Source of the DNA: Thermoanaerobaculia bacterium
Lineage (GTDB): Bacteria; Acidobacteriota; Thermoanaerobaculia; Multivoradales; JAGPDF01
NCBI GenBank assembly: GCA_963788175.1
Contig: CAWBFZ010000010.1
Span: 6,313-70,312, forward strand
Reading direction: 5' to 3'
Length of the DNA: 64,000 nucleotides
The notes under the pieces: generated by a model
The model's database searches: none
The model's input: only the letters and a program-made list of their open reading frames with translations
What the model was told of the DNA's origin: nothing
Shown here: one piece after another, positions 9,265-49,272 of the stretch
How positions within the stretch are numbered: position 1 is the first letter of the stretch
How the letters are laid out: the number at the start of each line of letters is the position of its first letter
Translations under genes and position numbers: made by a program

Positions 9265-9265
9265 G

Positions 9266-11975
9266 TTGGCCATGTCCTTAGGCGCGGGAAGTCGCCTCGG
9301 CCCCTACGAAATTACCGCCAAGCTGGGCGAGGGCGGCATGGGCGAGGTCTACCGCGCGACCGACTCGCGTCTCAAGCGCGAGGTGGCGATCAAGGTTCTG
9401 CCCGCAGCCTTCACTGCGGACAAGGAGCGTCTCGCCCGATTCGAGCGCGAAGCGCAACTGCTCGCGCAGCTGAACCACCCGAACATCGCTCAGATCTACG
9501 GCCTCGAGACCAGCGGCGCCACGCACGCCCTGGTCATGGAGCTCGTCCCCGGTCCGACGCTCGCCGAGCGCTTCGAATCCGGAGCTTTTTCCATTACCGA
9601 AAGCCTTTCTTTCGCCTTGCAGATCGCCCAGGCGCTCGAAGAGGCCCACGACAAGGGCATCGTCCACCGCGACCTCAAGCCCCAGAACATCAAGGCTTCC
9701 AGTGAAGGAAAAGCCAAGGTCCTCGATTTCGGGTTGGCCAAGGCGATGGACGCGACCGTCGGCGCCGCCTCGGCGGCCGATCTCGCGCGCTCGCCGACGC
9801 TGATGCATTCGCCGACTCTGACCGCCGTGCATGGGACGCAGCTGGGCATGATCCTGGGCACCGCGGCCTATATGGCGCCCGAACAGGCGCGGGGCGCTGC
9901 GGTCGACAAGCGGGCCGACATCTGGGCGTTCGGCGTGCTGCTCTACGAGATGCTCACCGGCGAGCGCGCTGTTCGAGGGCGACAGCGTCGTCGACACGCT
10001 GTCCGCCGTGATGCGCCAGGAGATCGATCTCGGACGCCTGCCCGCCGGCACGCCGGGCGCGATCCGGCTGCTGCTGCGCCGCTGCCTCGAGCGCAGCCCG
10101 AAGAACCGCCTGCACGACATCGCCGACGCCCGCATCGTCCTCGAGGAGCAGATCGCGGGCAAGGGCGACGAGGCGATCCCGGGCGTCGGCGTTCCCGCGG
10201 TAGACAAGGCCGGCCGGTCGCGCCTCGTCGAGCGGCTCGCCTTCGGCATCGGAGCGCTGGCGCTCGCCGGTCTCGCCTGGACTCTCGCTGCCCGCGGCGG
10301 GAGCAACGAGCCGCCGCGGCGCGCGGCGCGCTTCCACATCCTGCCGCCCGAGGAGGCCGAGTTCAACTCCACCGACGGACCGCTCGAGCTCTCGCCGGAC
10401 GGACAATCGCTGCTCTTCCGGCTCGAGAAGCCGGACGGCGAGCACGGCCTCGCCATCCGCCGCCTCGACTCGTTCGACATCCGCGAGCTGCCCGGAACGA
10501 CTCGCGCCTACGACGCCTTCTGGTCGGCCGACGGCCGCTCGATCGGTTTCTTCCGCGCCCAACTGGAGACCATTGACGCCGCCGGCCTGCAGGCGCCGCA
10601 GCAGCTCGCCGTCGTGCGCGACGGCCGGGGAGGAAGCTGGAACCGGAACGGCATCCTCCTCTTCGCTCCGGATCCGGCCGGTGCGATCTATCAGATCCCG
10701 GCGACCGGCGGCGCGCCGGTCGCAGTGACGGCAATCGACGCCGCGCTCGGCGAGACCGCCCACATGCGGCCGAGTTTCCTGCCCGACGGCAAGCACTTCA
10801 TCTACCTGATCAAGTCAGAGCGCGCCGAGAGCTCCGGCATCTTCGTCGGCGCGCTCGACGGCAAGCTCAAGAAACGTTTGCTGCCCAGCGAGACCGCTCC
10901 GCGCTTCGCTCCGCCCTCGTTCCTCCTGCTCTTCCAGAACGACCGCCTGGTCGCACGCCAGCTCGATCTCGAGCGGCTCGAAGTCACCGGCGAAGCGACC
11001 GCGCTGGCTGGCGGCGTCGAGTACACCTCGCGATTCGAGAGCCTGCCGGCCTCGGCGTCGCTCGACGGCAGGCTCGTCTACCACCAGCCCTCGACTGGTC
11101 AACTGCGTCAGACCGTGCACGCCGACCGCCTCGGCAAGCGACTCGCAACGCTCGGCGAACCGGGAGATTCGAACCTGGATCTCTCGCCTGACGGACGCCG
11201 ACTCGCGGTCGTCCGCTTCGATGTCGAACGCCGGCGGCAGTTCGTCTGGATTCACGATCTCGAACGCGACGTCCGCTTTCCGTTGAGCCCGGACAGTCCC
11301 GCCGGCGGACCGGTCTGGTCACCTGACAACCGGACGGTAGCCTACGCCGCCGAAACATCGACCGAGCCGCGCATCGCGACGCGTCCGGCGGACGGCGGCC
11401 CCGAACGCGTCGTCTGGCGTGACCCGTTCATCATGGAGCCGGTCGACTGGTCGCCCGACGGTCGTTGGATCCTCACCGAAGTTGGCTCGGCGGCCGGCAG
11501 GACCGATCTGACGCTGGTCCCGGCCGACGGCTCGGGCAGCGTGGTGCCGTTCGCCAACCAGCGCTTCACCGAGGACAGCGGCCGATTCTCGCCCGACGGC
11601 AGATTCATCGCCTACGTCTCGGACGAGGCGGGCCGCCCGGAGATCTACGTCGAGCCGGTGCCGCGCACCGGTGCCAAGTGGCTGGTCTCGGGCCGTGGCG
11701 GCAACGCCCCGCGCTGGAGCGCCGGCGGCAGGGAACTGCTCTACGTCGAGCCCGGCGCACGCGAGACCGACTCGACTCTGACCTCGGTCCGCGTTGAGCC
11801 GCAGGGCGACGGGCTCGCCTTCAGCCAGGCCACGGCGGTCGCACCGATCCCGTCGCTCGATATCGAGCTTGCCGCCGGCGGCCGCGAGCTTCTGCTGACC
11901 GTTCCGGTCGTCCAGGGCGTCACGCGCCCGCCGATCCTGATCGAGAACTGGACGGCGCTCCTGCCGGCGAAGTGA
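9266..11975 (+). pseudogene. Ser/Thr kinase-TM-beta-propeller paralog 4, frame broken by a +1 indel near 9963-9970
   Basis: The kinase frame 9266.. reads ...EMLTGERAVRGRQRRR (nonsense). The correct continuation ERLFEGDSVVDTLSAVMRQEIDL is in the frame of ORF 10008..11975. Nucleotide alignment to paralog 3 (gagcggctcttcgag versus gagcgcgctgttcgag here) shows one extra base. Confidence 0.75.
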
Positions 11976-28719: not shown

Positions 28720-29241
28720 ATGAAACTTCAATGGCAGCGGGCTTTCTTGCTTCTCCTGGTTGCGACGATCGGCTTCGTGCCGGCGCTGCGCGCCGACGTC
28801 TATCACTACGATGGCGTCATTGCCGATGGGGCGCAGTACGACGTCTACACGATCACGCTGCCTCCCCATACGCGAGTCGTCGCCGACCTGGTCTGTGCGC
28901 CGCCCCCCGACAACACTCTGGACACGATCCTCACCATGTTCGCTCCGGGCGTCGACCCTTCGGACCTCGCCAACGCCAGCTATTACAACGACGACGGTGG
29001 CACCGCAACCTGCGGCGGATTTCTCAGCTCTCGCCTGGATGTCATCGTCGCGAGCGGCGGTGACTGGCAGTTCCGGGTCGACGGCTTCGGTTCCGCCATC
29101 GGCGCCTACACGCTCGACATCGCGACCTACAATGCCACCACCATCGCGATCCCCACCCTCGACTCCGCGGGTCTCGTCCTCCTCGTCCTGATGCTGAGCG
29201 GGGCCGCGCTGTTCGTAATGCGCCGCAAGCGCCGCGCCTGA
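28720..29241 (+). CDS. Secreted protein with a beta-sandwich (pre-peptidase-C-terminal-like) domain and an IPTL-CTERM-like C-terminal sorting signal
   Basis: ATG 28720 follows GGAAGGGA. The signal peptide is MKLQWQRAFLLLLVATIGFVPALRA. The C-terminus IPTLDSAGLVLLVLMLSGAALFVMRRKRRA has the IPTL motif, a TM helix and a basic cluster. Confidence 0.65.
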   Translation: MKLQWQRAFLLLLVATIGFVPALRADVYHYDGVIADGAQYDVYTITLPPHTRVVADLVCAPPPDNTLDTILTMFAPGVDPSDLANASYYNDDGGTATCGGFLSSRLDVIVASGGDWQFRVDGFGSAIGAYTLDIATYNATTIAIPTLDSAGLVLLVLMLSGAALFVMRRKRRA

Positions 29242-29308: not shown

Positions 29309-29542
29309 ATGAAGAGGACGACGATCTACTTCGATCCCGAGCTCGAGGCGCTGCTCAAGGCCGAGACGCTGCGCCGGAATCAGCCGATGGCGGAGCTCGT
29401 CCGCGAAGCCGTTCGTGAGTACATCATCCGCCACCGGCCTGACTCGCCGCCGGGTGCGGGCGAGTTCGCCAGCGGGCGCTCCGACACGGCCGATCGATGC
29501 GAGGAGGTTCTCACCGCAACCGGCTTCGGAACGAGTCGCTGA
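29309..29542 (+). CDS. Ribbon-helix-helix (CopG-like) antitoxin
   Basis: MKRTTIYFDPELEALLKAETLRRNQPMAELVREAVREYI has the RHH-antitoxin pattern. The protein is 77 aa and sits immediately upstream of a PIN gene. Confidence 0.75.
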   Translation: MKRTTIYFDPELEALLKAETLRRNQPMAELVREAVREYIIRHRPDSPPGAGEFASGRSDTADRCEEVLTATGFGTSR

Positions 29543-29977
29543 GTGGCAGTTCTCCTCGACAGCGGGATTCTCTATGCCTACTATGACCGCAGCGACCGCT
29601 GGCACCGGGCGGCGGTCGAGCTGATCACCGCCGAGGCGGGTCGTCTCCTCCTGCCCTCACCGGTCGTGCCCGAGGTCGATCACCTGCTCGGAACCCGGCT
29701 GGGGAGAGCGGCAAGGCTGCAGTTCTACCGCGGACTCGTCGAAGCGAGCTTCCTGCTCGTCGACCTTCCGCAGGAACGCGTGGCCCGCCTTCGCGAAATC
29801 GACGAGCAGTTCTCCGCGCTCGATCTCGGCTTCGTCGACAGCGCACTGGTGGCCCTGACCGAGACTACAGGCGTGAAACGCATCGCCACCGCCGATCGCC
29901 GACACTTCGAGCCGCTCGCCCGCGCGTTCGACCTGACCCTCGTGCCCACTCCGCCCGAGGCGGAGGCGCGCCAGTGA
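29543..29977 (+). CDS. PIN-domain toxin (VapC-like), GTG start adjacent to the antitoxin stop
   Basis: (V)AVLLDSGILYAYYDRSDRWH... with later acidic residues (LGFVDSALVAL, ATADRRHF). The protein is 144 aa. Confidence 0.75.
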   Translation: MAVLLDSGILYAYYDRSDRWHRAAVELITAEAGRLLLPSPVVPEVDHLLGTRLGRAARLQFYRGLVEASFLLVDLPQERVARLREIDEQFSALDLGFVDSALVALTETTGVKRIATADRRHFEPLARAFDLTLVPTPPEAEARQ

Positions 29978-32749: not shown

Positions 32750-34279
32750 ATGGGGCAGCTTCCGCGACTCGTGCTGACCGGCGCGGCCGGATTCCTCGGC
32801 AAGCAGGTGATCGAACGGCTCGCCGGCAAGTGGCGCATCGAGGCGGTCGATCGTGACCCGCCGATTGCGGGGCCGCTGGCGCACCGGCCCGATGTTGCCT
32901 GGCACGCGGTCGACCTCACTGACGCCGCGGCGGTGACGTGGCTGTTCACCCGCCTGCGCGAGGACGGCGGCGCCACCGCTCTCGTCCACCTCGCCGCACA
33001 CTACGACTTCACCGGTGAACGCCATCCCGACTATCAGCGCACCAACGTCGACGGCACGCGGCGGCTGCTCGACGCCTGCGATGGACTAGGACTCGAGCGC
33101 TTCGTCTTCGCGAGCTCGCTCGCCGCCTGCGAATTTCCGCGCGCCGGGAAGATCCTCGTCGAGTCGAGCCCGCCCGACGGCGCGCACATCTACGCCGAGA
33201 GCAAGCGCGCCGGCGAAGCGATCGTGCGCGGGGAGCGGCGCTTTCCGACCACCATCGTGCGCTTCGCCGCCCTGTATTCGGACTGGTGTGAGTATGCCCC
33301 GCTCTTCTCGCTCCTGCGAACCTGGCTGTCGAAGGGCTGGAACTCGCGCATTCTCGGCGGACGCGGGCGCTCAGCCGTGCCCTATCTCCACGTCCGCGAT
33401 GCGGGCGCCTTCCTCGAGCGGCTGCTCGATCTGCGCCAGGAGCTCGAACCGGCGGAGGTCCTCATCGCGAGCCCGAACCGGGTGACCTCGCACGCCGACC
33501 TCTTCCGCGCCGTGACCGCCTACGTCCGCGGGAGGCCGCTGCGCCCGATCTTCACGCCGCAGCCGATCGCAGCGCTGGGCTTGCGCTTTCTCGATCTGGT
33601 CGGCAAAGCCTCCGGTGACCGGCCGTTCGAGCGCCCCTGGATGGCAAAGATGATCGATCGCCGCCTCGAGGTCGATCCGAGCCACACCTACGAGCGGCTC
33701 GGGTGGACGCCGCGCGCGCGCCTCGAGGTCACGCGGCGGATTCCGTTCCTGATCGAGAATCAATACAGCGAGCAGGGTACCTGGGCCGCCCGCAACGAAG
33801 CGGCCCTGCACATCGCCGAACTGCCGGCGCAGGTGCAGATCCTGCGCCTTTTCGAAGCGCACGAAGAGGAGCTCTTCGAAGCGGCAACGCGCGCCCTGGT
33901 CGCCGATCCGGTGCACTTCCCGCACTACGCGACCGTCGGCTCGAGCGAGCACGACTGGAATCACCGCCAGTTCCTCCGCAACCTGGCGCAGTCGGTGCGC
34001 ACACGGCATCGCGGCTTCTTCCGCACCTATTGCCACGATCTCGCGCTGCGGCGCGCCCGGCAGGGGATCCCCCATCACGAGCTCGACGCGGCGCTGCTCT
34101 CCTTTCAGAGGGTCTTCTACGAGGTGCTGGCCGCCGATCCGCGCGCCGCGGCCCTGCAGCCCCACCTGCACGAGCTCGTCACCCGCACCATCGAGTTCGG
34201 GCTCGACGGAGTCGAGGCCGGCTACGAAGAGGCCGGCCCGCCGCAAGCGACGGCGGAACATCAGCCTCCGGACTCGTAG
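32750..34279 (+). CDS. NAD-dependent epimerase/dehydratase-family (extended SDR) protein with a ~180-aa C-terminal extension
   Basis: The N-terminus is VLTGAAGFLGKQVIERL (Rossmann GxxGxxG). YAESK provides the catalytic YxxxK, and LVHLAAHYDF is also present. Confidence 0.7.
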   Translation: MGQLPRLVLTGAAGFLGKQVIERLAGKWRIEAVDRDPPIAGPLAHRPDVAWHAVDLTDAAAVTWLFTRLREDGGATALVHLAAHYDFTGERHPDYQRTNVDGTRRLLDACDGLGLERFVFASSLAACEFPRAGKILVESSPPDGAHIYAESKRAGEAIVRGERRFPTTIVRFAALYSDWCEYAPLFSLLRTWLSKGWNSRILGGRGRSAVPYLHVRDAGAFLERLLDLRQELEPAEVLIASPNRVTSHADLFRAVTAYVRGRPLRPIFTPQPIAALGLRFLDLVGKASGDRPFERPWMAKMIDRRLEVDPSHTYERLGWTPRARLEVTRRIPFLIENQYSEQGTWAARNEAALHIAELPAQVQILRLFEAHEEELFEAATRALVADPVHFPHYATVGSSEHDWNHRQFLRNLAQSVRTRHRGFFRTYCHDLALRRARQGIPHHELDAALLSFQRVFYEVLAADPRAAALQPHLHELVTRTIEFGLDGVEAGYEEAGPPQATAEHQPPDS

Positions 34280-34359
34280 CCGGCACGGACCCAAGAAAGG
34301 TAGTGGCGCATCGACGTCTTCGCGCCGCCAGCCCTGGCTGCCGGTAGACTCCGGTTCCG

Positions 34360-37300
34360 ATGGTCTCAAACCCTCGCCTGCCCCTCTTTGCCTTCGCCGT
34401 CGCGCTCGTCCTGCCGGCCGTCGCGGCGGCAGCGCTCGACGAAGCGGCCCTGAGCCTGCGCCAGAAAGGCCTCGCCGAGCTCGAGAACGAGCAGCCGTCG
34501 GCCGCCGCTGCGACCTTCGCCGAGCTCGCGCGGCGGGTTCCGGACGACCCGCTGCCACACGCCAACCTGGCGATCGCGGCGCTCCGCCAGGCTCGTCTGG
34601 AAGAGGCGCGGGCCGCGCTCGCCCGGGCGCTTGCGCTCGCGCCCGCGCGGCCCGACCTCGTCGCCATCGATGCCGAGATCGCCGCCGCGAGCGGTGATCT
34701 CGAAACCGGGCTGGAGCTCTTCCGCGCCGCGGCGGCGGGTGCGCCCGGCCGGGCCGATCTGCAGTTCGCCCTCCTGCGCAACGGCGAAGCGCTCGGCGGC
34801 GAGGCCGGCGACGCCGCCGTCGACGCGGCGCTCCTCCGGCTCACGCGCCTGCGCCCGGACAATCTCGTCGTGCTGCTCGGCGCCGGCCGGCGCGCGGTCG
34901 CGCCGCCGATCGACCGCAGCGCCGCCACGGCCGCGGCGCTGCGTATCCGGGAGCTCCTCTGGGAGGCCCCGGATGCGGCGCTCGAGGCGCTCGACCGGCT
35001 GACCGCGGCGCTCGAGGCCAGCGACCTGCCGCGGGCGCGTGTACCGATGCTGCAACTGGCGAACCTGCTGCGCCCGGGGCCGCTCTTCCAGCAAGGAGTC
35101 CGGGAGCTCTCGAGCGGCATCCTGGGGATTCCGGTCGAGCGTTTCGTCCTCGAACCACCGGCGCACGAGTTCGGTACCGCCGCTCGCCGTTGCGTTCGCC
35201 GGCACGGTGGTCGAAGCGAGCGCCGGCGGCGGCGCGCCCGCAGGCCCCCGTACCCTCCTCGCCACCGACCTCGACGGCGACCAGCGGCCGGATCTCGCTG
35301 CGGCTTGTGGCTGGCCCTCCGCGACGAACCCGGTCGCGCTGGAAATCCGCCTCGCCGCCGCCGGCTTCCGTCCGCAGATTCTCGGCCGGGCGTCCGGGCT
35401 CGTCGCGCTGCAGGCGGCCGATCTCGATCAGGACGGAAGGATGCGACCTCGTCGCCGTCGGCGCCTGCCGGCGCGCTCCGATTCCGCGCCGGGACGCCGG
35501 GGTTCACCCCCTGGCCGGCGGCCGGCGCGGAGCCGGCGATCCGCGGCAGCGCGCTCGCGGCGCTCGACTTCGACCTCGAAGGGGATCTCGATCTGGCGCT
35601 CGCCGGCGCGCGGGCACCGGGCGGCGAGCTGCTGCGCGTCCGCGGCCCCCGACCCCTCGTCGCCGCTCGGCGGCAGGTGTTGCCGGCGCCTGGCGCTCGG
35701 CGGCGTGCGCCGCCTGCTCGCGAGCGACCTCGACCGCGACGGCGATCCCGATCTCGTCGCGGCGGGCGACGATGGCCTCCTTCTGCTCGACAACCTCCGC
35801 CAGGGGCGCTTCGCCGATCGCACCGGCGCCGCGGAGCTGGCCGGCGACCGGGCCGCTCTTCGACGTGGCGAGCCGCCGATCTCGACCGACGGACGGCCCG
35901 ATCTGGAGCTCGTCGGGCGGGGGCGCGGCTGGTCCACGTCGTCTCCGCAACCGTGGCACGGCTTCGAGCCTTGGCGCTGCTCGCCGGGGTGCCGCCGCGC
36001 GTTTCGACGCCGTGATGCCTTCGACGCCGACAACGACGGCCGACTCGATCTGGCGCTCGCCGGTCCGGCGGGTGTCGTCGTGCTGGGCTGCGCGGAGCCG
36101 CTCGCCGGCGCCGCGCCTCGAGCGGCTCGCGACGTCCGGGGCTCCGACCGCGCGCATCGCGTCGCTGGCCGCGCCGACCTCGACGGCGACGGCGATCTCG
36201 AGCTCGTCGCCGCGGGTCGGGCCGGCCGGCGGCTCGGCGGCGCTTCGAGAACCGCGGAGGCAACGGCAATCACTGGCTGGCCGTCCGCCTGCGCGGACTC
36301 GAGCAGGGCAACGGCAAGAACGATCGCCTCGGCTTCGGTGCGACGCTCGAGCTGCGCCGCGGCGCCGCCTACCAGTTTCGCGAGGTCGACGACGAGGTCA
36401 CCGCACTTCGGTCTCGGCTCGCGGTCCGCGGACCGACGCTGCTGCGCGTCGTCTGGTCGAACGGCGTGCCGCAGAACCGCCTCGCGCCGCGCGGCGACCA
36501 ACGGATCGTCGAGGAGCAGGTGCTCAAGGGCAGCTGCCCGTTCCTCTACGCCTGGACCGGCGAGCGCTTCGCGTTCGTCACCGACCTGCTCTGGAACTCG
36601 CCGATCGGCCTGCCGGTCGCGCCCGGCGTCTGGGCAGCCCGGATCCCGGCGAGCTCGTGCGCGTCGACGGACTGGTGGCGGAGGCCGGGTTCGTACCGCC
36701 TGCGGCTGACCGAGGAGCTCTGGGAGGCGGCGCTCTTCGACCAGGTGCGGCTCTGGGTCGTCGACGCTCCGAGGCGACGTCGAGGTGGCGAGCAACCTGC
36801 GCGTCGTGCCCGGCGCCCCGCCGCAGCCGGAGCGACGTCCTGGCCAGCCGCGGGCTGCGCGCCGCCCGCCGCCGCCTGGGACGGCACCGGGGCCGAGGTC
36901 ACCGCGCAGCATCGCGGCGCGCGACGAGATCTACGCCTCCGGCTATCCGCACGAGCCCGCTCCAGGGTCGCCTCGCGCGTGGACCTTCACCTTCGAGCTC
37001 GACGAGGCGCCGGCGGCGCCGATCCGTCTGCATCTCGACGGCTGGGTCTTTCCGTCCGACGCCAGCCTCAACCTGGCGGTGGCGCAGCGCGCCGACCTGC
37101 CCGTATCTCGCACCGCGTCTCGAGGTCGAGACCGCGGCGGGCTGGGAGGCTGCTGGTCGCCGATTTCGGCCTGCCGCCCGGCAAGACCAAGACCATGGTC
37201 GTCGACACGCCGCCGCTGCCGCCCGGAGCGCGCCGCCTGCGCATCGTCTCCTCACTCTGGCTCGCCTGGGACCGGATCGCCTGGACGACGCAGCAGCGCC

Positions 37301-37770
37301 GACGCCGAGGCCACGACGGTCGCGATGCTCGCGCCGGCACTCGCCGAGCTCCGCTACCGCGGCTTCTCGGCCGCTCTACCGGCGCGCCCCCAACGCGCCG
37401 CACGCCTACGACTACGACGACGTCGCCGCGACCTCGCCCTGGCTGCCGTTTCCGGGCCGCTACACGCCGTTACGGCGACGTCGGCGAGCTGCTGGCGGCG
37501 GCCGACGATCGCAGCGCGCATCCTCGCGCCCGGCGACGAGTTGGCGCTCGAGTTCGACGGCAGCGCGCCTGCCGCCGCTGGCGCCCGGCTTCCGGCGCAC
37601 GCTCTTGCTCGAGAGCCACGGCTGGGACAAGGACTGTCGACCGCAACACCTTCGCCGGCGAACGCCTCGAGCCGCTCCCGTTCCGCGCCATGAGCGGCTA
37701 TCCCTGGCGCGACGACGAGCACTATCCGGAGACTCCGGAGCTCGGCGCTACCGCGAGGAGTGGCTGACGC
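34360..37770 (+). pseudogene. CRTAC1/ASPIC-UnbV family protein with an N-terminal TPR-like region; the frame is broken several times
   Basis: ORF 34360.. gives a signal peptide (MVSNPRLPLFAFAVALVLPAVAAAA) and a TPR-like region. FG-GAP/VCBS motifs (LLATDLDGDQRPDLAAA, LASDLDRDGDPDLVAAGDDGLLLLDN) and the UnbV_ASPIC-like stretch (NHWLAVRLRGLEQGNGKNDRLGFGATLEL...) appear only by hopping among three frames (ORFs 35039.., 35190.., 36466..). Confidence 0.5.
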
Positions 37771-40400
37771 GCGAGGTGACGGGGCCGTCGCGCACGCCGC
37801 CACGGGCGGACTCCCGACGCACGCTTGCCGGCGCCGGGTGGATACGGCTGGGAGAAGTCGTCAGCGCGCGCGTTCGACGACGAGCGTGCGGTCGACGGCG
37901 GGGAGCGCGGCCGCTCCGACCTCCTGCACCGTGCCGTCGGGCCAGCGCACGACGAGACCGTCGACGGCGGTCGACATCGCCCAGACCGAAGGTCGCGACG
38001 GTCTCGCTCTGCGAGAGGTAGCCGCGCGTCGCCGTGATCGTCCGGCGCTGGCGTCGTGCCGTCGGCGCGGAGCTCGATCTCGGCGCCGTAGGCGAGGCGA
38101 TTGCCCTGCCTCGTCGGCGAGCCGGACCTTGAGCCAGTGATGGCCGCTGTCGCTGGTCGTTGCGCAGCAGCAGCGGCGGGCCGCCGACCTGGGTCAGGAC
38201 GAGGTCGGGATCGCCGTCGCCGTCGAAGTCGGCCGTCGCCAGGCCGCGGCCGGCGATCGGCCGGGCGAGGTCGCCGACGGCGTCGCTGCGGCGAGGAGCG
38301 CGAAGGTCTGGCGCGCCTCCGGGCCGGCGTTCCAGAAGAGCTGCGCCGCCTGCAGGTAGCTCTGGCTCGGATCGACGCTGGGCGATCGCGCTCTCGAGGT
38401 GGCCGTTCGCGGCGACGAGGTCGAGACGGCCGTCGAGGTCGAGGTCGGCGAACAGCAATCCGAAGGTGAGCGCCCGGCGCGACGCCGCGCCGATGCCGGC
38501 GGCGATCGCCTCGTCGGCCCAGAGCAGGCCGTCGCCCTGGCTGACGTAGAACGAGGTCATCTCGTTGGCGAAGTTGCCGATCGCGATCGCCAGCTCGCCG
38601 GCATCGCGAAAGGCGCCGACGTCGATCCCCATGGCGCCGGTCGCCGCACCCATGCGGTCGAAGGCGACGCCGGCGGCGGTGCCGATCTCCTCGAAGGTGC
38701 GGTCGCCGCGGTTGCGGAAGAGGAAGTTCGCGGTGGTGTCGTTGGCGACCAGGAGGTCGACGTCCAGCCGTCGCCGTCGAGGTCGTGCGCCACGACGCCG
38801 AGCGCCTTCCCGACCGGGCGGCCGGTGGCCGGGTTGGCGACCGCGGATGCCCGCCGCCGCCGAGATGTCGACGAAGCGCCCCGTCCCGTCGTTTCGTAGA
38901 GCGCCGAGTCGGCGCCCTCGTAGTGCGTCGGCGGACCGTAGGCACGGCCCGACTCCGGTGAGCCGGAAGTCGACGTCGAGGTCGATCTGCCGCGACCAGC
39001 GCACGTAGCGGCAGACGAAGAGGTCGAGGTCGCCGTCGCGCTCGGCAGATCGAAGAAGGTCGCGCAGGTGTGCCAGTCGGCGGCGTCGCCCTCGACGCCG
39101 GCGCGCGGCATCTCGACGAAGCGCGCGTCCCCGCCGCCTCCCGCCGACATTGCGCAGCAGGCGGTTCTCGCCCACCGCCGTCACCAGGAGGTCCGGCCGG
39201 GCGTCGCCGTCGACGTCGCCCACCGCGACCCCCATGCCGTAGAGCGCCACCCGCCCCAGGCCGGACTCGGCGGTGACGTCGGTGAACCGCCAGCGTCGCG
39301 GCTCCGGCTGTCGTTGCGGTAGAGGCGGAGCGCGGGCCGCGGTCCGCCGCTCCACGGCCAGCTGCCGGAGTCGACGAACAGCAGGTCGCTGTCGCCGTCG
39401 CCGTCGGCGTCGAAGGCGGCGACACCGCCGCCCATCGACTCGGGCAGGAGCTTCTCGCCGGTCGCTCCGGTCGCGTGCACGAACTCGATCCCCGCCGCAG
39501 CGGTCTGGTTCGAGAAGCGGAGGGCTGCGGCGTGGCAGCGGACGCCTCGCGGCCCGCGGCGCGCGGCGCCGCGCCGGCGACCGCGCGACCGCGGTCGGCG
39601 CCTCGCGGCGCGGCACTCGCCGACGAGCAAGACCGCGCCGCCGCCGACGGCGGCGAGGAGCGAGCAGCGATCAGCGAACGCCGAACCGCGCGCCCGATGA
39701 CCGCGTCGTCGACCGGCGCGAGCTCGTCGTCGGGCTGGCGGCGCGCGCGGATCGCGTTCCGCCCGGCTGCGCTCATCGTCCGCCCCGCCGTCGCGCCGGC
39801 GCAGCTCGTAGGCCCCGCCCGGTCGAGGTCGTAGAGCACGATCGCCTCGGCGGCGTGGTCGGCGGCCGGGTCGGCGGCGCGCGCGATCGCCACCGCGCGG
39901 TCGCGCGCGTTGTCGTCGACGCGGTAGCGCGCGAAGGCCTCCGAGTGCCGCCGGGCGCCTTCGGCGTCGCCGAGCTCGCTGCAAGACCCGGGCGCAGGTT
40001 GTAGTGCGCCGCGGCGTTCTCCGGGTCGATCTCGAGCGCCGCCTCGAGTTGCGCTCGACGGCGCGCCGCAGGAACGCCTCACGCGCCGCGGCCGTGCGAC
40101 CGGGCCGCGCTCCTGCCGCGCCCGCTCGGCGAGCGTCTCGCCGAGCTCGATGCGCACCCGGTAGTCGCGCGAGAAGTCGAAGCCCCGCTCGGCCAGCTCG
40201 CCGCCGGTCGCGGCAGGATCCCCTCGAGAGCCGGCGATCGCCTCGTCGAGGTAGCCGTTCTGCTTGTCGACCTGCGCCGACGAGCCAGGCGAGCGTCCAG
40301 GGGCGTGCCGGAGGATCGAACTTCGCCGCGCGCGCGAGCGCCGCGACCGCGCGATCGGCGACCGCGCCCTGCGCGAGGTAGACCCGCGCCAGATTGAGCG
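37748..40400 (-). pseudogene. Second degraded CRTAC1/ASPIC-UnbV + TPR gene on the minus strand (boundaries approximate)
   Basis: FG-GAP motifs (FDADGDGDSDLLFVDSG, GDVDGDARPDLLVTAVGENRLLRN, ADFDGDGDPDLVLTQVGGPPLLLRN) and the ASPIC-like end (TRGYLSQSETVATFGLGDVD) are split between minus-strand ORFs 39181..40656 and 37748..39616. TPR-like sequence lies upstream. Confidence 0.45.
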
Positions 40401-42689
40401 GGCCGTCGGGCCTGCCCGAGCCGCTCGACCTCGGCGAACGCCGCCTCGGCGCCGGCGAGCTCGCCGCGCGTCTTGCCGCCCTTCTGCAGCAGGCCGATGC
40501 CGTAGTCGTTCCAGCGCTGCCACTCGGGGATCGCGGCGACTCCGGGTTCGCCTGCGCCGCTGCACTTCCCGATCGCGCTGCACGCGGGAAAGTGATGCGG
40601 TCGGTCGCCAGGGTCATGACCGGCAGGTCGTTCACGAACCCGGCGCCATAGACCATGGCGCATGTACTTCGTGTCGAACTTGCGGTAGCGCAGCGCCACC
40701 TCCACGGTGAGCGCTCCGCGCAGGTCGGGCGGCACGTTCAGCCGATAGTGGATGACATCGGCCGCGCCGGGCCCGATCTGGTGATCGTAGAGCGGCACGA
40801 AGATGTCCTGCGCGTTGCGGCGGTCGATTCGCCGGCCTTCGCGGTCGAGCACCCAGGCGTTCAGGAAGTGCGACCAGGGATCGACCTCGCCGCTCGGGGC
40901 CCGGCCGCCGCTCTTGCCGATCCGGCGGTCGCCGGCGGTCGCGGTGACCTCGAGCCAGACCTCGTTCGAGTCCGCCGTGCCCTGCGTGAAGTGGTGTCCG
41001 AGCTTCACCGTCCGCACCACCGTCTCGAGCAGGTAGCTCCGTCCCGGGGACGAGCGTCGGCACGCTGCGGCCGCAGGGGCGCCGTCGAGCGGGCCGTCGA
41101 TCGTGCCGCCCTCCTTGACGCCGAAGAGATCGACGCGCACCACGCCCTCGTTGAACGTCTCGTGCTCCTTCGACGATCTCCGCGCCAGTCCGGCTCTGCC
41201 GGCGAGCTTGGCGATCGCCGTGTTGGCCGAAGGGAAGAGGTGGTCGCGGATCGCGAGCGTCTTGCCGTCGTGGTACTTGGCGCCGAAGTCGTTCGAGGGC
41301 ACCGGCTTCATGTGACAGCCGTTGCAGTTGGCCTCGGCCTTCTCGGGGTAGTAGAAGGCGGCGACGCCGTGGCCCGAGACGCCCGAGAGCAGGAAAGAGT
41401 CGTAGTGGTTCTGGCCGCGCAGCCACTTGTACTTGTTGAGCTGCTGCGGCAGGTGCACCTTGTGGCAGGCGCCGCAGAACTCGGGCGTGCGGTGCAGCGG
41501 CTTGAGGAAGGTCTTCTTGTGGAACTCGGGCTTCGCCTTGATCAGCTGGCGGTTGACCCAGGCGAGCGTCCTGTTCTCGCTGAAGGCGAACGGGTAGTGC
41601 TGCGGCTCCTCGATGGTGTAGTCGGAGTTGCCGCGCGGCGAGTTGACGTGGGTGATCGCGTGGCAGGCCGGTGCAGGTGAGCCCGGCCTTGGCGGTCGGG
41701 TCGTTCACGTCGTCGAACTTCGGGTCGTCGAAGCGCCCGGAGAAGAAGACCACCGGATCGTGGCAGCCGGCGCAGAAGCGCGCCGCCTGCAGGTCGCCGT
41801 CGCGCTCGAGCGCGACCTTGCGCGTCTCGCGCACCGAGAACAGGTACGGCGGGTTGTTGAACGAGCTGAACCGGTGGGCGCTCTTCTGCCAGCGCGTGTG
41901 GGTGTCCTCGTGGCACTCGGCGCAGTAGGCGTTGTTGTCGAGGACGCGGGCGGGGATGAACCCGCCCGGTCGACGGTCCGGGCCAGCGACGGCGGAGAAG
42001 TAGCGCTCGCCGCTCGCCGGGCCGGACTCATGTTCCAGCGCCGCGGATCCTGCGCCTGGACGACGAGGAGCGCACCGGCGAAGAGCGCCGCCACCACCGC
42101 CCACCGCCGGCCGACCGCCCAGCGGATCTGCTTGCCCGCCAGCCGGTGCAGGACGAAGAGCCAGACGACCGCCGACCGGCACGAGAACGTGCACCCACCA
42201 GGCGACCGCGCGCACGGTCGGATCCTTGACCACGATCACCCCTTCGAGCCGCGTGAGCACGACGCCGCTCGCGAGCAGCAGCAGGACCGGCGGTGAACAG
42301 CGCGTAGCCCACCGCCACGGCGCGCCGATTCGGACGCGTCCGCGCCCGCCACCAGTGGACGCAGCCGAAGCCGACCGCCGGCAGCAGCAGCAGCGCGCCG
42401 AGCACGAGGTGCAGCAGGAAGAGGATGAGGTAGAACCAGTTCTGGTAGGTCTGCCCGGTCGCCGCCTCGAGGCCGCGCACCCCGAGCAGGTAGACCGAGT
42501 CGACGACCAGCAGGGCGAAGAGGCCGAAGACCGACGAACAGCAGCTTCGCGAGCCGCGGCCCGACGGCCGGCACGTAGCGCCGCTTCGCCGGCGGACCGG
42601 CCGGTGGCATCGCGGGACCGCCGGCGGGCGGGAGAAGGCCTTCGGGCATCGGCCGCCGAGCCTAGCAGGCCCGGACAGCAGCGGGGCAT
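40400..42689 (-). pseudogene. Membrane-anchored multiheme c-type cytochrome (at least 5 CxxCH) with a TPR-like C-terminus; multiple frameshifts
   Basis: Minus-strand frames contain CAECHEDTH, CAGCHDP, CTG(C), CGACHK (reconstructed across a shift) and CNGCHMKP, plus N-terminal hydrophobic segments (ORF 42028..42480). Continuity requires at least 3 frame changes, and the 3' boundary with the next gene is unclear. Confidence 0.5.
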
Positions 42690-42777
42690 TGACAGGCCGG
42701 GGAGGGCCTGTTACGGTCCGCGCTCAAGAATTCGAATCGACCGCCTGAAACCAGTTTCAGGCGAAAGGGAGAAATCG

Positions 42778-43371
42778 ATGAAGATCCGTTTGGTTTTGTT
42801 CGCAGTGCTTGGCATCGCCCTCATGGCGAGCCCGGTTGCCCAGGCGGCGGTGACCCACAGCTCCGCGCCGAACGCCCCGGTGTCTCCCGACAACGGTTGC
42901 CTCGATGACACCGCCGGCACCGGCCTGGGCGGCATCACCGATGTGATCGCCTTCGTCGAAGCCGGCACGATCTCCGACGTCAACGTCCGCGTCGAGTTCA
43001 CGCAGACCTGGCGCGGCGACATCCAGACGGCGCTCACTTACACCGGCGGCGGCGGCGCCGTCGTTCTGGCCAACAACCACGGCGGCTCGGCCGACAACTA
43101 CTACGCGACCTTCGACAGTGACGCCGCCTTCCTGTGCTCCGATGCCACCTCGGGGTGCGGCGCCGCTGCCAACTGTGCCGCCGCGCCCGGACCGACCTGC
43201 CAGCCGAACCAGACGCTGAATGCCTACGACGGCCTCACCAGCCCGGGCACCTGGACCCTGACGACCTGCGACCGCGCGACCGGCGACACTGGGAACCTGG
43301 TTGCCTGGGAGGTCACCGTCGACGGTGACGGCGGCCTGCCGGTCGATCTGCAGGGCTTCTCGGTCAACTGA
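42778..43371 (+). CDS. Secreted standalone proprotein-convertase P-domain-like protein
   Basis: ATG 42778 follows AAAGGGAGA. The signal peptide is MKIRLVLFAVLGIALMASPVAQA. VNVRVEFTQTWRGDIQTALTYTGGG...GTWTLTTCDRATGDTGNLVAWEVTV matches the P-domain pattern (xVxVxIxHxxxGDLxIxLxSPxG...GxWxLxVxDxxxxDxGxLxxWxLxI). Confidence 0.6.
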   Translation: MKIRLVLFAVLGIALMASPVAQAAVTHSSAPNAPVSPDNGCLDDTAGTGLGGITDVIAFVEAGTISDVNVRVEFTQTWRGDIQTALTYTGGGGAVVLANNHGGSADNYYATFDSDAAFLCSDATSGCGAAANCAAAPGPTCQPNQTLNAYDGLTSPGTWTLTTCDRATGDTGNLVAWEVTVDGDGGLPVDLQGFSVN

Positions 43372-43373
43372 GC

Positions 43374-44912
43374 TTGGCCCGAACTCCGCTGCGATCCTGC
43401 AAGCGGTGCGCAAAAGGGCGGCCTCTGGCCGCCCTTTTCGTTGTCGGAGCGACGCTCGCCTCCGCCGCTCCCGCCACCCTCGCCACCCTCGCTACCGACG
43501 CGCCGCTGGTCGCGCGCTGGCGCGGCGGCGAGCTCACGCTCGCCCGCTTCCACGACCACTACGATCCCCAGGGCACGGCGCTCCTCGCCGGGGGCGATCG
43601 GCTCCGCACCGAGGTTGCCAAGGCGGTCTTCCGCGAGATCGAAGGTCCCCGGGCGCTCGCCCTCGGGCTCGACCGCGACCCGGCCGTTCTCGCCGACCTC
43701 GCCGCCTGGCGGACGCGCCAGTTGGCGGGGCTCGCGCGCCGCGCGCTCGCTCCCGCGAGCGCTCCGACGCCGGAAGAGATTGCCGCCGCCTGGTCCGCGC
43801 GCGCGCAGGAGATCCTGCCGCCGGTCGCCGAGGTCGACATCGACGTCCTCTTCGTGCGCTGCCCGTTGCGGGCGAGCGCGCGCCCGGCTTGCGCCGAGCA
43901 ACTCCGCGGCCTGCTCGCCCGGCTCGCCCGGGGCGAGCCGTTCGCCACCGTCGCAGCGGAAGAGCAGGAGCGCTCCGGGCCGGCCAACGGCAGCTTCAAC
44001 AAGGTGGCGCTCGGCAGTCTGATGAGCGATCTCGCGGCGGCGGCCGCGACGCTCCCGGTCGGCGAGCTCTCCGGCCCCCTGCCCTCGCCGAATGCTCTCT
44101 TCGCGCTGCGCGTCCTGCGGCGCGGCGAGCGCCCGCTGCCGGCGCTCGCCGCGGTCGAACCCCTGGTGCGCAAGTTTCTGCTCGGCGAGCGCGAGCGCAC
44201 CGCGGTCGCCGCCCTGCCGCTACCCAACGGGCAGGAGGACACACCGGAGAGTCGGCTCGCCGCCTACGCTGCGGCCGCCGGCCTCGATCACAGCGCGAGC
44301 TTTCTGGCCGACGAGGAGCGCCAGCGCGGCTGGCTGCTCGCCGACGCCGCCTTCCTGCGCGATCCCGAGCAGGCCCCGCCACCCGAAGCGATCCGCGCCG
44401 CGATCGCTGCCGAGCCCGCCCGCTGGCGGCGAGCTCACTTCGACCTGGCCGTGGTGGACGCGCGCGGCGACCACGCGACCGGCCTCGCGACCGCCGCCCG
44501 GGCGGCGGATCGACTCGCCGGGTCCGCGGACGCCGCGCAGACTTTCGCCGCCCTCCCTGCCCTCGAGCCGGCAGTCGCCCTGCGTACTTTCGCCGCGGTC
44601 GATCTCGCGACCCTCGACCCGCTGCTCGCCGCCACGGTCGGCAAGCTTCAGCCGGGCGAATGGGGCGGGCCGGTGCCCCTGGCGCATCTCGACGGCGGCC
44701 AGGTCGAGCGCCACCGTGCCTCGTCCGGCGGTGCGACGGGTGCCGACTACGCCGGCCTGGCGCTCGTGCTGCTGCGCTCCTGGGCGCCGGCAGACGAGGC
44801 CGCAGTGGCGACAGCGCAGCGGCGCGAGGCCCGGGCGCAGATGGGCTCGAGCAGCGCTGCCTTCATGACGCAGTTCGGCGAGGCGCGCGGCGTCGAGATC
44901 CTCGTGCCGTGA
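43374..44912 (+). CDS. Periplasmic parvulin-type peptidyl-prolyl isomerase / SurA-like chaperone (TTG start directly after the upstream stop)
   Basis: The signal-like N-terminus is MARTPLRSCKRCAKGRPLAALFVVGATLASAAPATLA. The parvulin-like segment is DVLFVRC...LARGEPFATVAAEEQERSGPANGSFNKVALGSLMSDLAAAAATLPVGELSGP. The domain assignment is moderate only. Confidence 0.5.
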   Translation: MARTPLRSCKRCAKGRPLAALFVVGATLASAAPATLATLATDAPLVARWRGGELTLARFHDHYDPQGTALLAGGDRLRTEVAKAVFREIEGPRALALGLDRDPAVLADLAAWRTRQLAGLARRALAPASAPTPEEIAAAWSARAQEILPPVAEVDIDVLFVRCPLRASARPACAEQLRGLLARLARGEPFATVAAEEQERSGPANGSFNKVALGSLMSDLAAAAATLPVGELSGPLPSPNALFALRVLRRGERPLPALAAVEPLVRKFLLGERERTAVAALPLPNGQEDTPESRLAAYAAAAGLDHSASFLADEERQRGWLLADAAFLRDPEQAPPPEAIRAAIAAEPARWRRAHFDLAVVDARGDHATGLATAARAADRLAGSADAAQTFAALPALEPAVALRTFAAVDLATLDPLLAATVGKLQPGEWGGPVPLAHLDGGQVERHRASSGGATGADYAGLALVLLRSWAPADEAAVATAQRREARAQMGSSSAAFMTQFGEARGVEILVP

Positions 44913-47900
44913 ACGCCGGCCAGCGCGGGCCTCTCGCCGCGACGCTGGTGGGCGCCGCCCTGTGGGCGGCATCGCCGACCTTCGCCACCGACCCTCCCCT
45001 CGTCGAGGTCGCGGCCGCGGCCGGGCTCGACTTCCGCCACTGGAACGGACGGACCGGTCGCCTCTACGACGCCGAAGTGTTGGCGCCGGGGCTCGCGCTC
45101 TTCGATTACGACGGCGACCAGGACCTCGATCTGCTGGTGCTGCAGGGGAATCGCCTCGATCTCCAGGGCAAGCCTCTCGATCCGCCTCCGCGCCTCTCCG
45201 ACGGCGCGCCGCGCGGCGCCGTGCTCTACGCCAATCGCGGCAACGAGAACGGCATCCCGCGCTTCGTCGACGTCACCGCGCAGAGCGGCCTCGACGAGCG
45301 CGGCTATGGCATGGGCCTGGCGACCGGTGACATCGACAACGACGGGCACGTCGATCTTCTGGCGACCCGGCTCGACGGCGCCACCCTGTGGCGCAACCGC
45401 GGCGACGGCACCTTCGCCGACGAGAGTGCGGCGCGCGGTCTCGCCGTCACCGGCTGGGCGACCAGCGCGACCTTTTTCGATGCCGACCGCGACGGCTGGC
45501 TCGACCTCTACGTCGCGCGCTACGTCGACTGGAGCCCGGCGCTCGATCGCGTCTGCTTCGACTCGAGCTCGCGGCCGGACTACTGCGGCCCGCTCTCCTA
45601 CCGCCCGCTGCCTGACCTCTATTTCCACAACCGCGGCGACGGTACCTTCGAGGACGCGAGCGCGGCGAGCGGCATCGGCGGGAGAGCGGCGGCCGGGCTC
45701 GGCGTCGCCGCCGCCGATCTCGATCGTGACGGCTGGCAGGACCTCTACGTCGCCAACGACGCGACAGCCAATTTCTTCTGGCGCAATCGCGGCGACGGCA
45801 CCTTCGAGGAGGTCGCGGTCGAGCGCGGTTGCGCCTACGACCTTTCCGGGGTGGCCGAGGCCGGGATGGGGCTGGCGATCGCCGACCTCGACGGCGACCG
45901 CGACGAGGATCTGCTCGTCACCAACCTCGTGGGGGAGAGCATCACCCTGTACACCAACAGCAGCGACGGCTGGTTCGAGGACCGCACCCTGCGCGCCGGC
46001 CTCGGCGCGTCGAGCCTCCCATTCACCAGCTTCGGGACGGCGGTCTTCGATCTGGGCAACGACGGCCTGCCGGACATCGTGGTGGCCAACGGAGACATTC
46101 GCCTGCTGCCGGCGCGCCTCGCCGCCGGCGATCCGTTTCCGCTCGGGCAGCAGAACCTGCTCTACCGCGGGCTGGGCGGCGGACGCTTCCGGGCGCTGCC
46201 GCCCGCCGCGGTGCCGGGACTCGCCGCCGTCGAGGTCAGCCGCGGCGTCGGGTTGGGCGATCTCGACGGCGACGGCGCGCAGGACGTCGTGATCGCCAAC
46301 AACAACGGTCCGCTGCGCGCCCTCCTCGACCGCAGCCCGAACCGCGGGCACTGGCTCGGCCTGCGGCTGCGGACGAACCGGCGCGATGCCCTCGGCGCGC
46401 GGGTCTTCGTCCATACCGGCGACGGCCAGGGACACCTCGGGCGCGCGCACAGCGACGGCAGCTACCTCTCGGCGAGCGATCCGCGGGTCTGGATCGGGCT
46501 CGGCGCCACCACGACCCTGGGCGAGCTCTGGGTGCGCTGGCCGTCCGGTGAAGCCGAGCGCTTTCCACCGCCGCGGGTCGATCGCGTCGTCGGGCTCGAA
46601 CGTGGGCGCGGCCGAGCCCTCGCGGTGGCCGAGTTCGAAGCGACGCTTTCCGCGCAGCCAACGGCGGCGGGAGGCGCGCCATCGCCCGGCCGGTCCGCGG
46701 CACTGGCAGCGCCCGCGACGCCGCTACCGCCCACCGCAACGCCGGACCACGCCCTGGAGGGTGTCGAGCTCCCCGACCTCTCCGACCTCGAGCCGGTCGT
46801 CCGGCGGACGCTCGAGGCCGCCCTCCTTGCCGCGCAGTCGAGCTCGCCGGCCGAGGCCACCCCGGCCTGGGGCGACCTCGGTCGCGAGCTCCACGGCCAT
46901 GGCTTCCTGCCCCAGGCCGCAATCGCCTACCGCAACGCCGAGCGCTTCGATCCGCGCTCGGCGCGCTGGCCTTACCTGCAGGGCCTGGCGGCCCAGACCG
47001 CCGGCGACCTCGCCGCCGCGCGCCCGGCGTTCGCACGCGCCTGCGAGCTCGCGCCGGCCGCGCCCTGGCCGCGGATCCAACTGGCTTCTCTCCGGCGCCA
47101 GGAGGGCGACTTCACCGGCCTCGACGACCTCCTCCTGCCGGTGGTCGACGACACCACGCTGCCGCGCGGCCTGCGCGCCCTGGCGGCGGCGATGCGGGCG
47201 GAGGCGGCGCGCCTCGAGGAGCGGCTGCCGGCGGCGATCGCCGCCTATCGCCAGGCACTCGATCTCGAACCCGAAGCGAGCGCGCTGCGCGCCCCGCTCG
47301 CGCAGCTGCTGCGGCAATCGGGTGACCTCGAAGGAGCCGCACGCGAGCGCGCGCTCGCCGGGAATCGCCGGCCACAGGCGGTCGATCCCGAGGCGGAGGC
47401 GCTGGAGAGCCTCGACCGCAGCGGCGCCGGGTTCGCGCGCCGCGGCCAGGAGGCCCTGCGGCGCGGCGACGACCCGGCGGCGCTCACGGCGCTCCGCGAG
47501 GCGCACCGGATGTTGCCCGGGAATGCCGGCGTGGCGGTGAACCTGGCCGTCGCCCTGCAGCATCTCGATCAGCCCGACGCCGCGCGCGCCGTGCTCACCG
47601 AGGCGCTCGCCGCCGATCCGCAGCAGCCGATGGCGAACTTCAATCTCGGCGTACTCGAGGCCGCCGCCGGCCGCGATCGCGCCGCCATCGCCGCCTACGA
47701 AACCGCCCTGCGTTCCGACCCGCGGCTTCTCGACGCGCGCTTCAACCTCGCCAACGCCCACTGGCGGCTGGGCGAAGACGCAGCGGCGATCGCCGCCTGG
47801 CGCGCAGTGCTCGCCGGCGATCCCCTGAGAAGTGACGCTCGCAGCGCCCTCGTGCGCGTTCTCGCGGCAGCGCAGGACCGCGCCGGGGCGCTGGCGCTCG

Positions 47901-48295
47901 CCGCAGAGGGGCTCCACCTTGCCCCCTCCGACCCCGACCGGATGGAGGAGGTCGCGCGGCTGCTCGCCACCGCCACCGCCGACGCCGGCGGCGATTCCGC
48001 CCGCGCCCTGAAGCTCGCCGAAGCCTGTCTCGCTGCCTCGCGGACCCTCGACCACGTCGAGACGGCGGCGATGGCGTACGCCGCCGCCGGGAGATTTCTC
48101 GACGCGGCGCGCTGGCAGCAAGCCGCCGTGCGCGTGGCCGAGGAGGCCGGCGCCACCGACCGCCGGGACGAGCTCGCCGGGGTTCTGGCGCGCTATCTCG
48201 CCGGGCAGACCGCAGCCGCTCCCTGGCCCGGGCGGCCCAAGGTCAGGAACGCCGGGCGGCTCCCGGGCGCCCACGACGCACCCACCGAGCCCTGA
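44909..48295 (+). CDS. CRTAC1/ASPIC-UnbV family protein (FG-GAP/VCBS repeats) with C-terminal TPR repeats; GTG start overlapping the upstream stop (GTGA)
   Basis: Repeated motifs FDYDGDQDLDLLV, GDIDNDGHVDLLATRLDGATLWRNRGDGTF, ADLDRDGWQDLYVANDATANFFWRNRGDGTFEE, DLDGDRDEDLLVTN and GDLDGDGAQDVVIANNNGP. The ASPIC-like segment is NRGHWLGLRLRTNRRDALGARVFVHTGDGQGHLGRAHSDGSYLSASDPRVWIGLG...LWVRWPSGEAERF. The C-terminal about 480 aa are TPR-like. The frame is uninterrupted, 1128 aa. Confidence 0.8.
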   Translation: MNAGQRGPLAATLVGAALWAASPTFATDPPLVEVAAAAGLDFRHWNGRTGRLYDAEVLAPGLALFDYDGDQDLDLLVLQGNRLDLQGKPLDPPPRLSDGAPRGAVLYANRGNENGIPRFVDVTAQSGLDERGYGMGLATGDIDNDGHVDLLATRLDGATLWRNRGDGTFADESAARGLAVTGWATSATFFDADRDGWLDLYVARYVDWSPALDRVCFDSSSRPDYCGPLSYRPLPDLYFHNRGDGTFEDASAASGIGGRAAAGLGVAAADLDRDGWQDLYVANDATANFFWRNRGDGTFEEVAVERGCAYDLSGVAEAGMGLAIADLDGDRDEDLLVTNLVGESITLYTNSSDGWFEDRTLRAGLGASSLPFTSFGTAVFDLGNDGLPDIVVANGDIRLLPARLAAGDPFPLGQQNLLYRGLGGGRFRALPPAAVPGLAAVEVSRGVGLGDLDGDGAQDVVIANNNGPLRALLDRSPNRGHWLGLRLRTNRRDALGARVFVHTGDGQGHLGRAHSDGSYLSASDPRVWIGLGATTTLGELWVRWPSGEAERFPPPRVDRVVGLERGRGRALAVAEFEATLSAQPTAAGGAPSPGRSAALAAPATPLPPTATPDHALEGVELPDLSDLEPVVRRTLEAALLAAQSSSPAEATPAWGDLGRELHGHGFLPQAAIAYRNAERFDPRSARWPYLQGLAAQTAGDLAAARPAFARACELAPAAPWPRIQLASLRRQEGDFTGLDDLLLPVVDDTTLPRGLRALAAAMRAEAARLEERLPAAIAAYRQALDLEPEASALRAPLAQLLRQSGDLEGAARERALAGNRRPQAVDPEAEALESLDRSGAGFARRGQEALRRGDDPAALTALREAHRMLPGNAGVAVNLAVALQHLDQPDAARAVLTEALAADPQQPMANFNLGVLEAAAGRDRAAIAAYETALRSDPRLLDARFNLANAHWRLGEDAAAIAAWRAVLAGDPLRSDARSALVRVLAAAQDRAGALALAAEGLHLAPSDPDRMEEVARLLATATADAGGDSARALKLAEACLAASRTLDHVETAAMAYAAAGRFLDAARWQQAAVRVAEEAGATDRRDELAGVLARYLAGQTAAAPWPGRPKVRNAGRLPGAHDAPTEP

Positions 48296-49225: not shown

Positions 49226-49272
49226 TCGGTGCCTGGCTTCGATCCACCCGCAGTTCAATGGAGGAATCAGCG

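Follow-up and report, generated by a model that had tools for sequence, protein, structure and literature searches.

The occurrence of two secreted proteins with similar C-terminal tails in a single stretch of bacterial DNA has led us to ask which sorting system these tails belong to and which enzyme would process them. The stretch analysed here (hereafter the window) is 64 kb long, has a G+C content of about 70%, and comes from an uncultured Thermoanaerobaculia-type bacterium (Acidobacteriota). In a six-frame scan of this window, all ORF C-termini were examined for a short proline-containing motif, a hydrophobic stretch, and basic residues, in this order; only three were found with this tripartite organization, namely those of a small exported protein, of an extracellular nuclease, and of a sortase substrate with an LPHTAS motif (49258–49830). 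The first two tails are those pointed out in a first-pass annotation of this DNA and both are borne out by translation: positions 29149–29241 (+ strand) encode IPTLDSAGLVLLVLMLSGAALFVMRRKRRA followed by a stop codon, and positions 60618–60719 (+ strand) encode IPALDSVGLAALALLLGGLAIARLAHSRRRPAG followed by a stop codon, so that each tail ends its ORF. Both carriers had been described as secreted, and our reading of their sequences agrees in placing an N-terminal signal peptide on each. The explanation that we favor, and that we regard as probable when taken as a whole (i.e., including the processing by exosortase H or a close paralogue), is that both tails serve their proteins as IPTL-CTERM sorting signals and represent an ordinary example of that class instead of an orphan system.

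The small protein (173 aa; 28720–29241, + strand) was delineated by means of its ORF and translation, its orthologues, and AlphaFold and Foldseek analyses. It comprises a signal peptide spanning about residues 1–25, which we read as MKLQWQRAFLLLLVATIGFVPALRA/D (…FVPALRA/DVYHY), a beta-sandwich resembling PPC/collagen-binding domains (residues 26–138), a linker, and the IPTL-CTERM tail. The AlphaFold model (mean pLDDT of 84.7) displays eight strands arranged in a beta-sandwich and a C-terminal helix at residues 149–172, the linker ahead of the tail being a low-confidence region, while the structures matched by Foldseek are pre-peptidase C-terminal domains and the CBD (collagen-binding) domains of collagenases. 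An identical copy of this protein is called in several public assemblies, and its named homologues are from Thermoanaerobaculia. The tail (29149–29241, + strand) is made of IPTL DSAG, a hydrophobic helix, and RRKRRA before the stop codon, and it belongs to the IPTL-CTERM class, with scores above the curated cut-offs of both TIGR04174 (22.3 bits; cut-off 20.5) and PF18203 (23.2 bits; cut-off 20.8). Twelve orthologues, with 55–78% identity, were recovered from Thermoanaerobaculia-type metagenome contigs, and all 12 have kept the [IV]P[TA]L[DG]..G motif, the transmembrane helix, and the RRxRRA cluster; it follows that the tail is not fortuitous. Two distant paralogues possess another C-terminal domain in place of the tail. 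Kept in 12 orthologues and swapped in two paralogues, the tail behaves as an exchangeable sorting module.

The preservation of the motif also bears on whether the tails might be plain C-terminal membrane anchors, never cleaved, by which the proteins would stay tethered to the inner membrane and face the periplasm. A mere anchor needs no motif, whereas [IV]P[TA]L[DG]..G is kept beside the helix in the orthologues and is common to unrelated proteins. We consider plain anchors quite improbable, even if such an explanation would account for a C-terminus that appears simply as a helix in the AlphaFold model, for a window that encodes no processing enzyme, and for the lack of experimental data on IPTL-CTERM processing in the literature searched. 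It would, in addition, leave an extracellular-type nuclease decorated with DUF11 surface repeats attached to the inner membrane of a diderm bacterium, which makes little sense, and it does not sit well with a signal class that is tightly tied to a dedicated exosortase gene, as detailed below.

It is worth describing the surroundings of the small protein. A ribbon-helix-helix (RHH) antitoxin and a PIN toxin (VapBC-like) are encoded directly downstream, at 29309–29977, and the same gene order, i.e., the small IPTL protein followed by the VapBC-like pair, is found on one independent metagenome contig. Both the small protein and the VapBC pair sit inside an array (803–32660) of about ten paralogous proteins of roughly 900 aa, mostly on the + strand, in which an N-terminal Ser/Thr kinase is fused to a TolB/PD40-type beta-propeller.

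The second carrier is an ExeM/NucH-family extracellular nuclease encoded at 56041–60719 (+ strand), for which NF033681, DUF11, tblastn, and GC3 analyses point to a gene interrupted by about nine frame changes. The first-pass annotation had treated the ORF at 56991–60719 as a single product, a "giant nuclease"; this does not hold, as only 58581–60719 shares the frame of the tail. Read as a single 1242-aa ORF, the nuclease would begin with some 530 residues of out-of-frame translation, and this gene model was rejected. With four homologues as queries (P0017, P0022, P0024, and P0026), tblastn yielded collinear matches in three frames, at 57319–58149, 58154–58585, and 58581–60638, and this collinear alignment locates frame shifts at about 58150 and 58582. 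The GC3 frame plot, combined with the reading of the three frames, indicates that the frame changes about nine times beyond the start codon (56041), which is followed by a signal peptide read as MRLSARAALLLCICALAVSGAEA/Q. The reconstructed nuclease then comprises N-terminal and Calx-beta-like domains, the nuclease domain, four to five DUF11/CLIPPER repeats, and the IPAL tail. NF033681 matches a 250-aa in-frame piece (57349–58100) with 116.6 bits over profile positions 54–266; the threshold of this model, 300 bits, applies to a full-length score, and since the gene is split over at least three frames only the piece could be scored. The C-terminal repeat region obtains 166 bits with DUF11.

Similar frame changes are scattered over the window. 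Two Ser/Thr kinase genes contain one frameshift each (near positions 9965 and 22944), as confirmed by collinear tblastn with their paralogues, and GC3 suggests further frame changes at 34000–48300 and 62000–64000, in the FG-GAP/ASPIC, multihaem cytochrome, VWA-FHA, and OPT transporter genes. These changes occur without any stop or start boundary, and genes are similarly split in related long-read-style contigs. Most frameshifts of the window are probably assembly indels of the long-read type and not the outcome of a targeted pseudogenization. No identical nuclease protein was found in a collection of 5.8 billion proteins, which would fit with a pseudogene call in the source record, and if the frameshifts are real the nuclease gene may be non-functional.

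The tail of the nuclease (60618–60719, + strand) consists of IPAL DSVG, a hydrophobic helix, and RLAHSRRRPAG before the stop codon. It obtains 15.3 bits with TIGR04174 and 14.8 bits with PF18203, both below the cut-offs, so that the TIGR04174 search proposed earlier as a check of the class assignment was positive for the small protein and negative for the nuclease. Among sorting signals, the 572-aa C-terminal piece of the nuclease matches IPTL-CTERM best, and when the tail is scanned alone PVV-CTERM is about equal to IPTL-CTERM (15.9 versus 16.2 bits). The proposal that both tails are of the IPTL-CTERM class stands for the nuclease by way of its homologues. The closest of them (P0015) ends with EIPALDAAGLAALALVLAGLAILRLRSRR and, like the small-protein orthologues, argues against a fortuitous tail; about 85 of the best 120 homologues of the repeat region end in tails of the [IV]P[TA][LM] type, with IPAL or VPAL in 17 of these best 120, and several bear the NCBI name "IPTL-CTERM sorting domain-containing protein". 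On the strength of these homologues, the nuclease tail would best be called IPTL-CTERM-like and nothing more precise. The tail itself is modular and conserved among these proteins. It should be added that the same catalytic family carries other tags elsewhere: a GlyGly-CTERM tag has been described on an extracellular nuclease of Shewanella (PMC3237569), and the NF033680 model corresponds to the GlyGly-CTERM form of this extracellular nuclease family. That one catalytic family bears different tags suggests that the tail serves as an address label and does not belong to the enzyme proper.

Which enzyme, then, would read this label? The first-pass annotation noted no obvious cognate enzyme in the window, and indeed neither an exosortase, nor a rhombosortase, nor a CPBP-like polytopic protein was found among the window ORFs. 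The sole polytopic membrane proteins are an oligopeptide-type transporter (62.7–63.6 kb) and the N-terminus, with four transmembrane segments, of a multihaem cytochrome (42.06–42.53 kb). The further statement that no processing enzyme is established for IPTL-CTERM is, in terms of curated predictions, out of date: NCBIfam contains exosortase H (XrtH), TIGR04177, and its pairing with the signal is also visible by gene adjacency. TIGR04177-type enzymes are named "exosortase H" by NCBI and "exosortase H (IPTLxxWG-CTERM-specific)" by JGI, and the NCBIfam model NF033207, "midcut-by-XrtH", describes a family with an internal IPTL-like region. Among 93 IPTL-type tails, 73 match TIGR04174 (E ≤ 0.01) and 75 match NF033207, the latter matches being a pointer to exosortase H.

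Genome context tells the same story. A degenerate DNA pattern for IPTLSEWG, run over the GTDB species-representative genomes, returned at least 120 loci from many phyla, and among the matches listed IPTLSEWG lies at most 45 aa from the stop codon in 100 of the 113 in-frame ORFs. At one Chloroflexota locus (L072), a gene whose product ends with PIPTLTEWGYIV…RRRS is followed, 4 bp further on, by the gene of a 216-aa TIGR04177 protein (100.4 bits; cut-off 86). A local XrtH HMM was built from L072-type sequences and searched against 172 loci and the window, with XrtH ORFs found in 17 of the 172 loci; a regular expression for the exosortase active site recovered one of these 17 ORFs and the local HMM the rest. 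At no fewer than 11 of the 17 loci, a gene with IPT[LV][ST]EWG, a helix, and a basic tail at the end of its product precedes XrtH by 4–385 bp on the same strand, and these paired loci (at least 11) span Chloroflexota, Bacteroidota, Zixibacteria, Betaproteobacteria, and Desulfobacterota. NCBIfam scores of the XrtH proteins reach 248.9 bits for L068, 244.5 for L123, 117.2 for L026, 96.3 for L177, and 88.8 for L065. The same layout is seen at loci reached from the XrtH side, where the substrates contain …AVSEWGL, …IPTVSEWGL, or …LPTVTEWGV. The Cys, Arg, and His residues do not vary among the aligned XrtH sequences, and the XrtH profile gives 203 matches (E ≤ 1e-30) among 1.84 billion representative proteins. 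The pairing of IPTL-type signals with XrtH is thus already curated and can be reproduced from genome context, as a computational prediction; the literature searched contained a single incidental mention of IPTL-CTERM/XrtH and no experimental work on the pairing or on the cleavage of any IPTL-CTERM protein.

Several observations were made along these loci. The polytopic ORFs lying near IPTLSEWG matches were considered as candidate enzymes, and the 20 that were scanned are all transporters or unrelated proteins. Likewise, the idea that the "midcut-by-XrtH" gene adjoins XrtH was rejected for the Acidovorax-type contigs (L021 and L127–L130). The non-C-terminal IPTLSEWG case of Acidovorax facilis is itself a midcut-by-XrtH protein (131 bits), the internal region of which passes TIGR04174; in the Acidovorax proteins (L021:137-667; L127-L130:6001-6522), the passing segment covers residues 40–66 of 176. 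Immediately downstream of XrtH, or overlapping it, a membrane protein of about 215 aa with a …P.PWRRR… motif is encoded at five loci (L174:10654-11301, L175:10167-10826, L177:6603-7256, L178:1832-2527, and L179:4440-5165). These proteins match each other with E values of 1e-8 to 1e-21 in the 10 pairs, out of 15, for which a match was obtained, and no NCBIfam model matched them; it may be that they represent an undescribed partner of exosortase H. At L174, two small secreted proteins encoded at 8440–9853, upstream of an XrtH-like gene identified by its matches to Pfam Exosortase_EpsH and to the XrtH profile only, end with …SPALSPWSL… and …APAVSEWGL…. These variants suggest that the "IPTL" part can vary widely while (E/P)W is kept.

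The tails of the window depart from the IPTLxxWG consensus in one respect. The IPTL or IPAL part and the Gly are present, and Trp is replaced by Ala in the small protein (DSAG) and by Val in the nuclease (DSVG). This is a difficulty for a processing by XrtH, since every substrate seen beside XrtH carries EW(G) and none carries DxxG, and the nuclease tail scores below the cut-offs. We have accordingly considered whether the Trp-less IP[TA]LDxxG tails form a separate sub-class, recognized by another enzyme such as a Thermoanaerobaculia-specific exosortase paralogue in place of the canonical XrtH. Among 91 homologue tails, 45 contain Trp and 20 are of the DxxG type without Trp, the latter speaking for a sub-class, as do the HMM scores of the window tails, one marginal (22.3 bits) and the other below the threshold (15.3 bits). 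Moreover, at the four DxxG-flavor loci (the window, L005, L172, and L173), the surroundings of the tailed gene contain no XrtH over a distance of about 10 kb. On the other hand, the bias toward EWG stems in part from ascertainment, as the pattern used for the genome scan was IPTLSEWG; most tails still match TIGR04174 and the XrtH-linked NF033207; and homologous DUF11 proteins display, at the same position, a continuous gradation of tails (SEWG, SEWA, GGWM, DWRG, SVFG, GGMG, and DxxG), which is what would be expected of one diverging signal family. All things considered, a separate DxxG sub-class of this kind appears to us rather unlikely.

Within the class Thermoanaerobaculia, contigs also carry canonical IPTLSEWGL tails, and no XrtH was detected at eight loci of 2–24 kb each. 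Neither exosortase, rhomboid, CPBP, nor sortase genes occur within 10 kb on either side of the Thermoanaerobaculia IPTL proteins P0001, P0092, P0006, P0105, and P0112. It is tempting to speculate that the Trp-less IP[TA]LDxxG tails, common in Thermoanaerobaculia, are a distinct signal whose enzyme would be an exosortase paralogue or even an unrelated protease, and not the canonical XrtH; we deem this unlikely. Were it true, the window proteins would be substrates of a truly orphan system. The Trp-less flavor would offer a natural probe of specificity, and it is the one modestly interesting point of the case.

The window does encode one sorting-type enzyme, a class D-like sortase (48536–49225, + strand). 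Its best match is NF058671, "class D sortase, LPxTATN-specific", with 134.2 bits, just below the cut-off of 140, and it obtains 89.5 bits with TIGR01076 (cut-off 39.35). The gene of its substrate (49258–49830, + strand; identified as an ORF and by the tripartite scan) begins 33 bp past the sortase gene and encodes a signal peptide, a small domain, a (PA)n linker, and the LPHTASN motif followed by a transmembrane segment and RRRSN; about 22 Pro-Ala repeats form the linker, directly before the LPHTASN signal. The NF058670 model of the LPxTATN signal gives this substrate 19.5 bits, below the cut-off of 32. With both enzyme and signal just under the new NCBIfam cut-offs for LPxTATN, the pair may represent a divergent branch of the LPxTATN system in Acidobacteriota. 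Dedicated sortase–substrate pairs have been described in Gram-negative bacteria (PMC3237569), and judging from sequence and gene order the window sortase would serve only the neighboring LPHTASN substrate, in a system separate from IPTL. The suggestion that the organism uses at least two C-terminal sorting systems is thereby upheld, as the sortase and its adjacent substrate come in addition to the IPTL tails.

The alternative suggestion, in which a single sortase of broad specificity also handles the IPTL and IPAL tails, fares poorly and seems to us highly improbable. To its credit, no other sorting-type enzyme is encoded in the window, and the helix and basic part of the small-protein tail weakly resemble an LPXTG anchor model (17.8 bits); this match covers profile positions 11–33 only and leaves the motif positions uncovered. 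Over the full small protein, TIGR01167 (LPXTG) yields 12.7 bits, below its cut-off of 15.9, and the sortase-signal models recognize no LPXTG-like motif in the IPTL and IPAL tails. The sortase best fits an LPxTATN-specific class D model and has its own LPHTASN substrate immediately next to it, the usual layout of a dedicated, single-target enzyme, and IPTL-type signals elsewhere adjoin exosortase H genes and not sortases. Beyond the sortase substrate gene, on the − strand (49901–54106), a long-form isocitrate lyase (755 aa) lies beside a malate synthase (639 aa), both identified by eye from the translations, and a Crp/Fnr regulator and a ScdA/RIC-like di-iron protein adjoin this pair.

Returning to the IPTL-CTERM assignment, the following pathway can be proposed. 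The N-terminal signal peptide would direct each protein to Sec for export, after which the C-terminal helix would hold it in the inner membrane, the basic residues remaining on the cytoplasmic side and [IV]P[TA]L on the periplasmic one. A membrane enzyme of the exosortase family, with a Cys/Arg/His active site, would then recognize the motif and cleave at or near it; this enzyme is presumed to be exosortase H, or a paralogue close to it, with a gene outside the window and with the ability to accept DxxG in the place of the Trp-containing motif. The mature PPC-like protein, or the DUF11-decorated nuclease, would finally be released or re-attached for display at the surface.

In practical terms, both window proteins can be labeled as IPTL-CTERM (exosortase H-type) cargo, which has little import beyond annotation, while the window sortase is best kept apart, as a dedicated system of its own. 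More generally, the IPTL-CTERM/XrtH pairing exists as database curation only, and the substrate–XrtH gene pairs (e.g., L068, L123, L072, and L026) would constitute a convenient start for a first biochemical test.

The comparison with known systems helps to situate these two proteins. With the IPTL-CTERM/XrtH system they share a C-terminal [IV]P[TA]L motif, a hydrophobic helix, a basic cluster, an N-terminal signal peptide, and a distribution over many unrelated carriers; they differ from it in that the window tails lack the Trp of the xxWG part, the nuclease tail is below the cut-off, and no XrtH is encoded in the 64-kb window, as searched with the local XrtH HMM. In the literature searched, the one published protein annotated with an IPTL-CTERM domain is the S-layer protein mela_00855 of Methylomirabilis lanthanidiphila (PMC8671808), which is likewise a surface protein with a signal peptide and a C-terminal tag but possesses an unrelated mature domain. 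The LPxTATN/class D sortase system (NF058670, NF058671), represented in the window itself, also marks a secreted protein with a three-part signal at its C-terminus; it differs by its LPHTASN motif, by another enzyme fold, and by an arrangement of one enzyme with one adjacent substrate. Another system is PEP-CTERM/exosortase A (XrtA/EpsH), with which the window tails share the tripartite layout and the predicted enzyme superfamily, and in which many substrates correspond to one enzyme in Gram-negative environmental bacteria (PMC1569441); the window tails, however, lack the Pro-Glu-Pro motif, obtain 12.8 bits with TIGR02595 (cut-off 16), and are not found in the context of an EPS locus. Finally, the GlyGly-CTERM/rhombosortase system (PMC3237569; NF033680) has another motif, and its enzyme, a rhomboid protease, is unrelated, and yet it also places a C-terminal sorting tag on secreted nucleases of the ExeM type, from which it can be understood that the tag is an exchangeable module.
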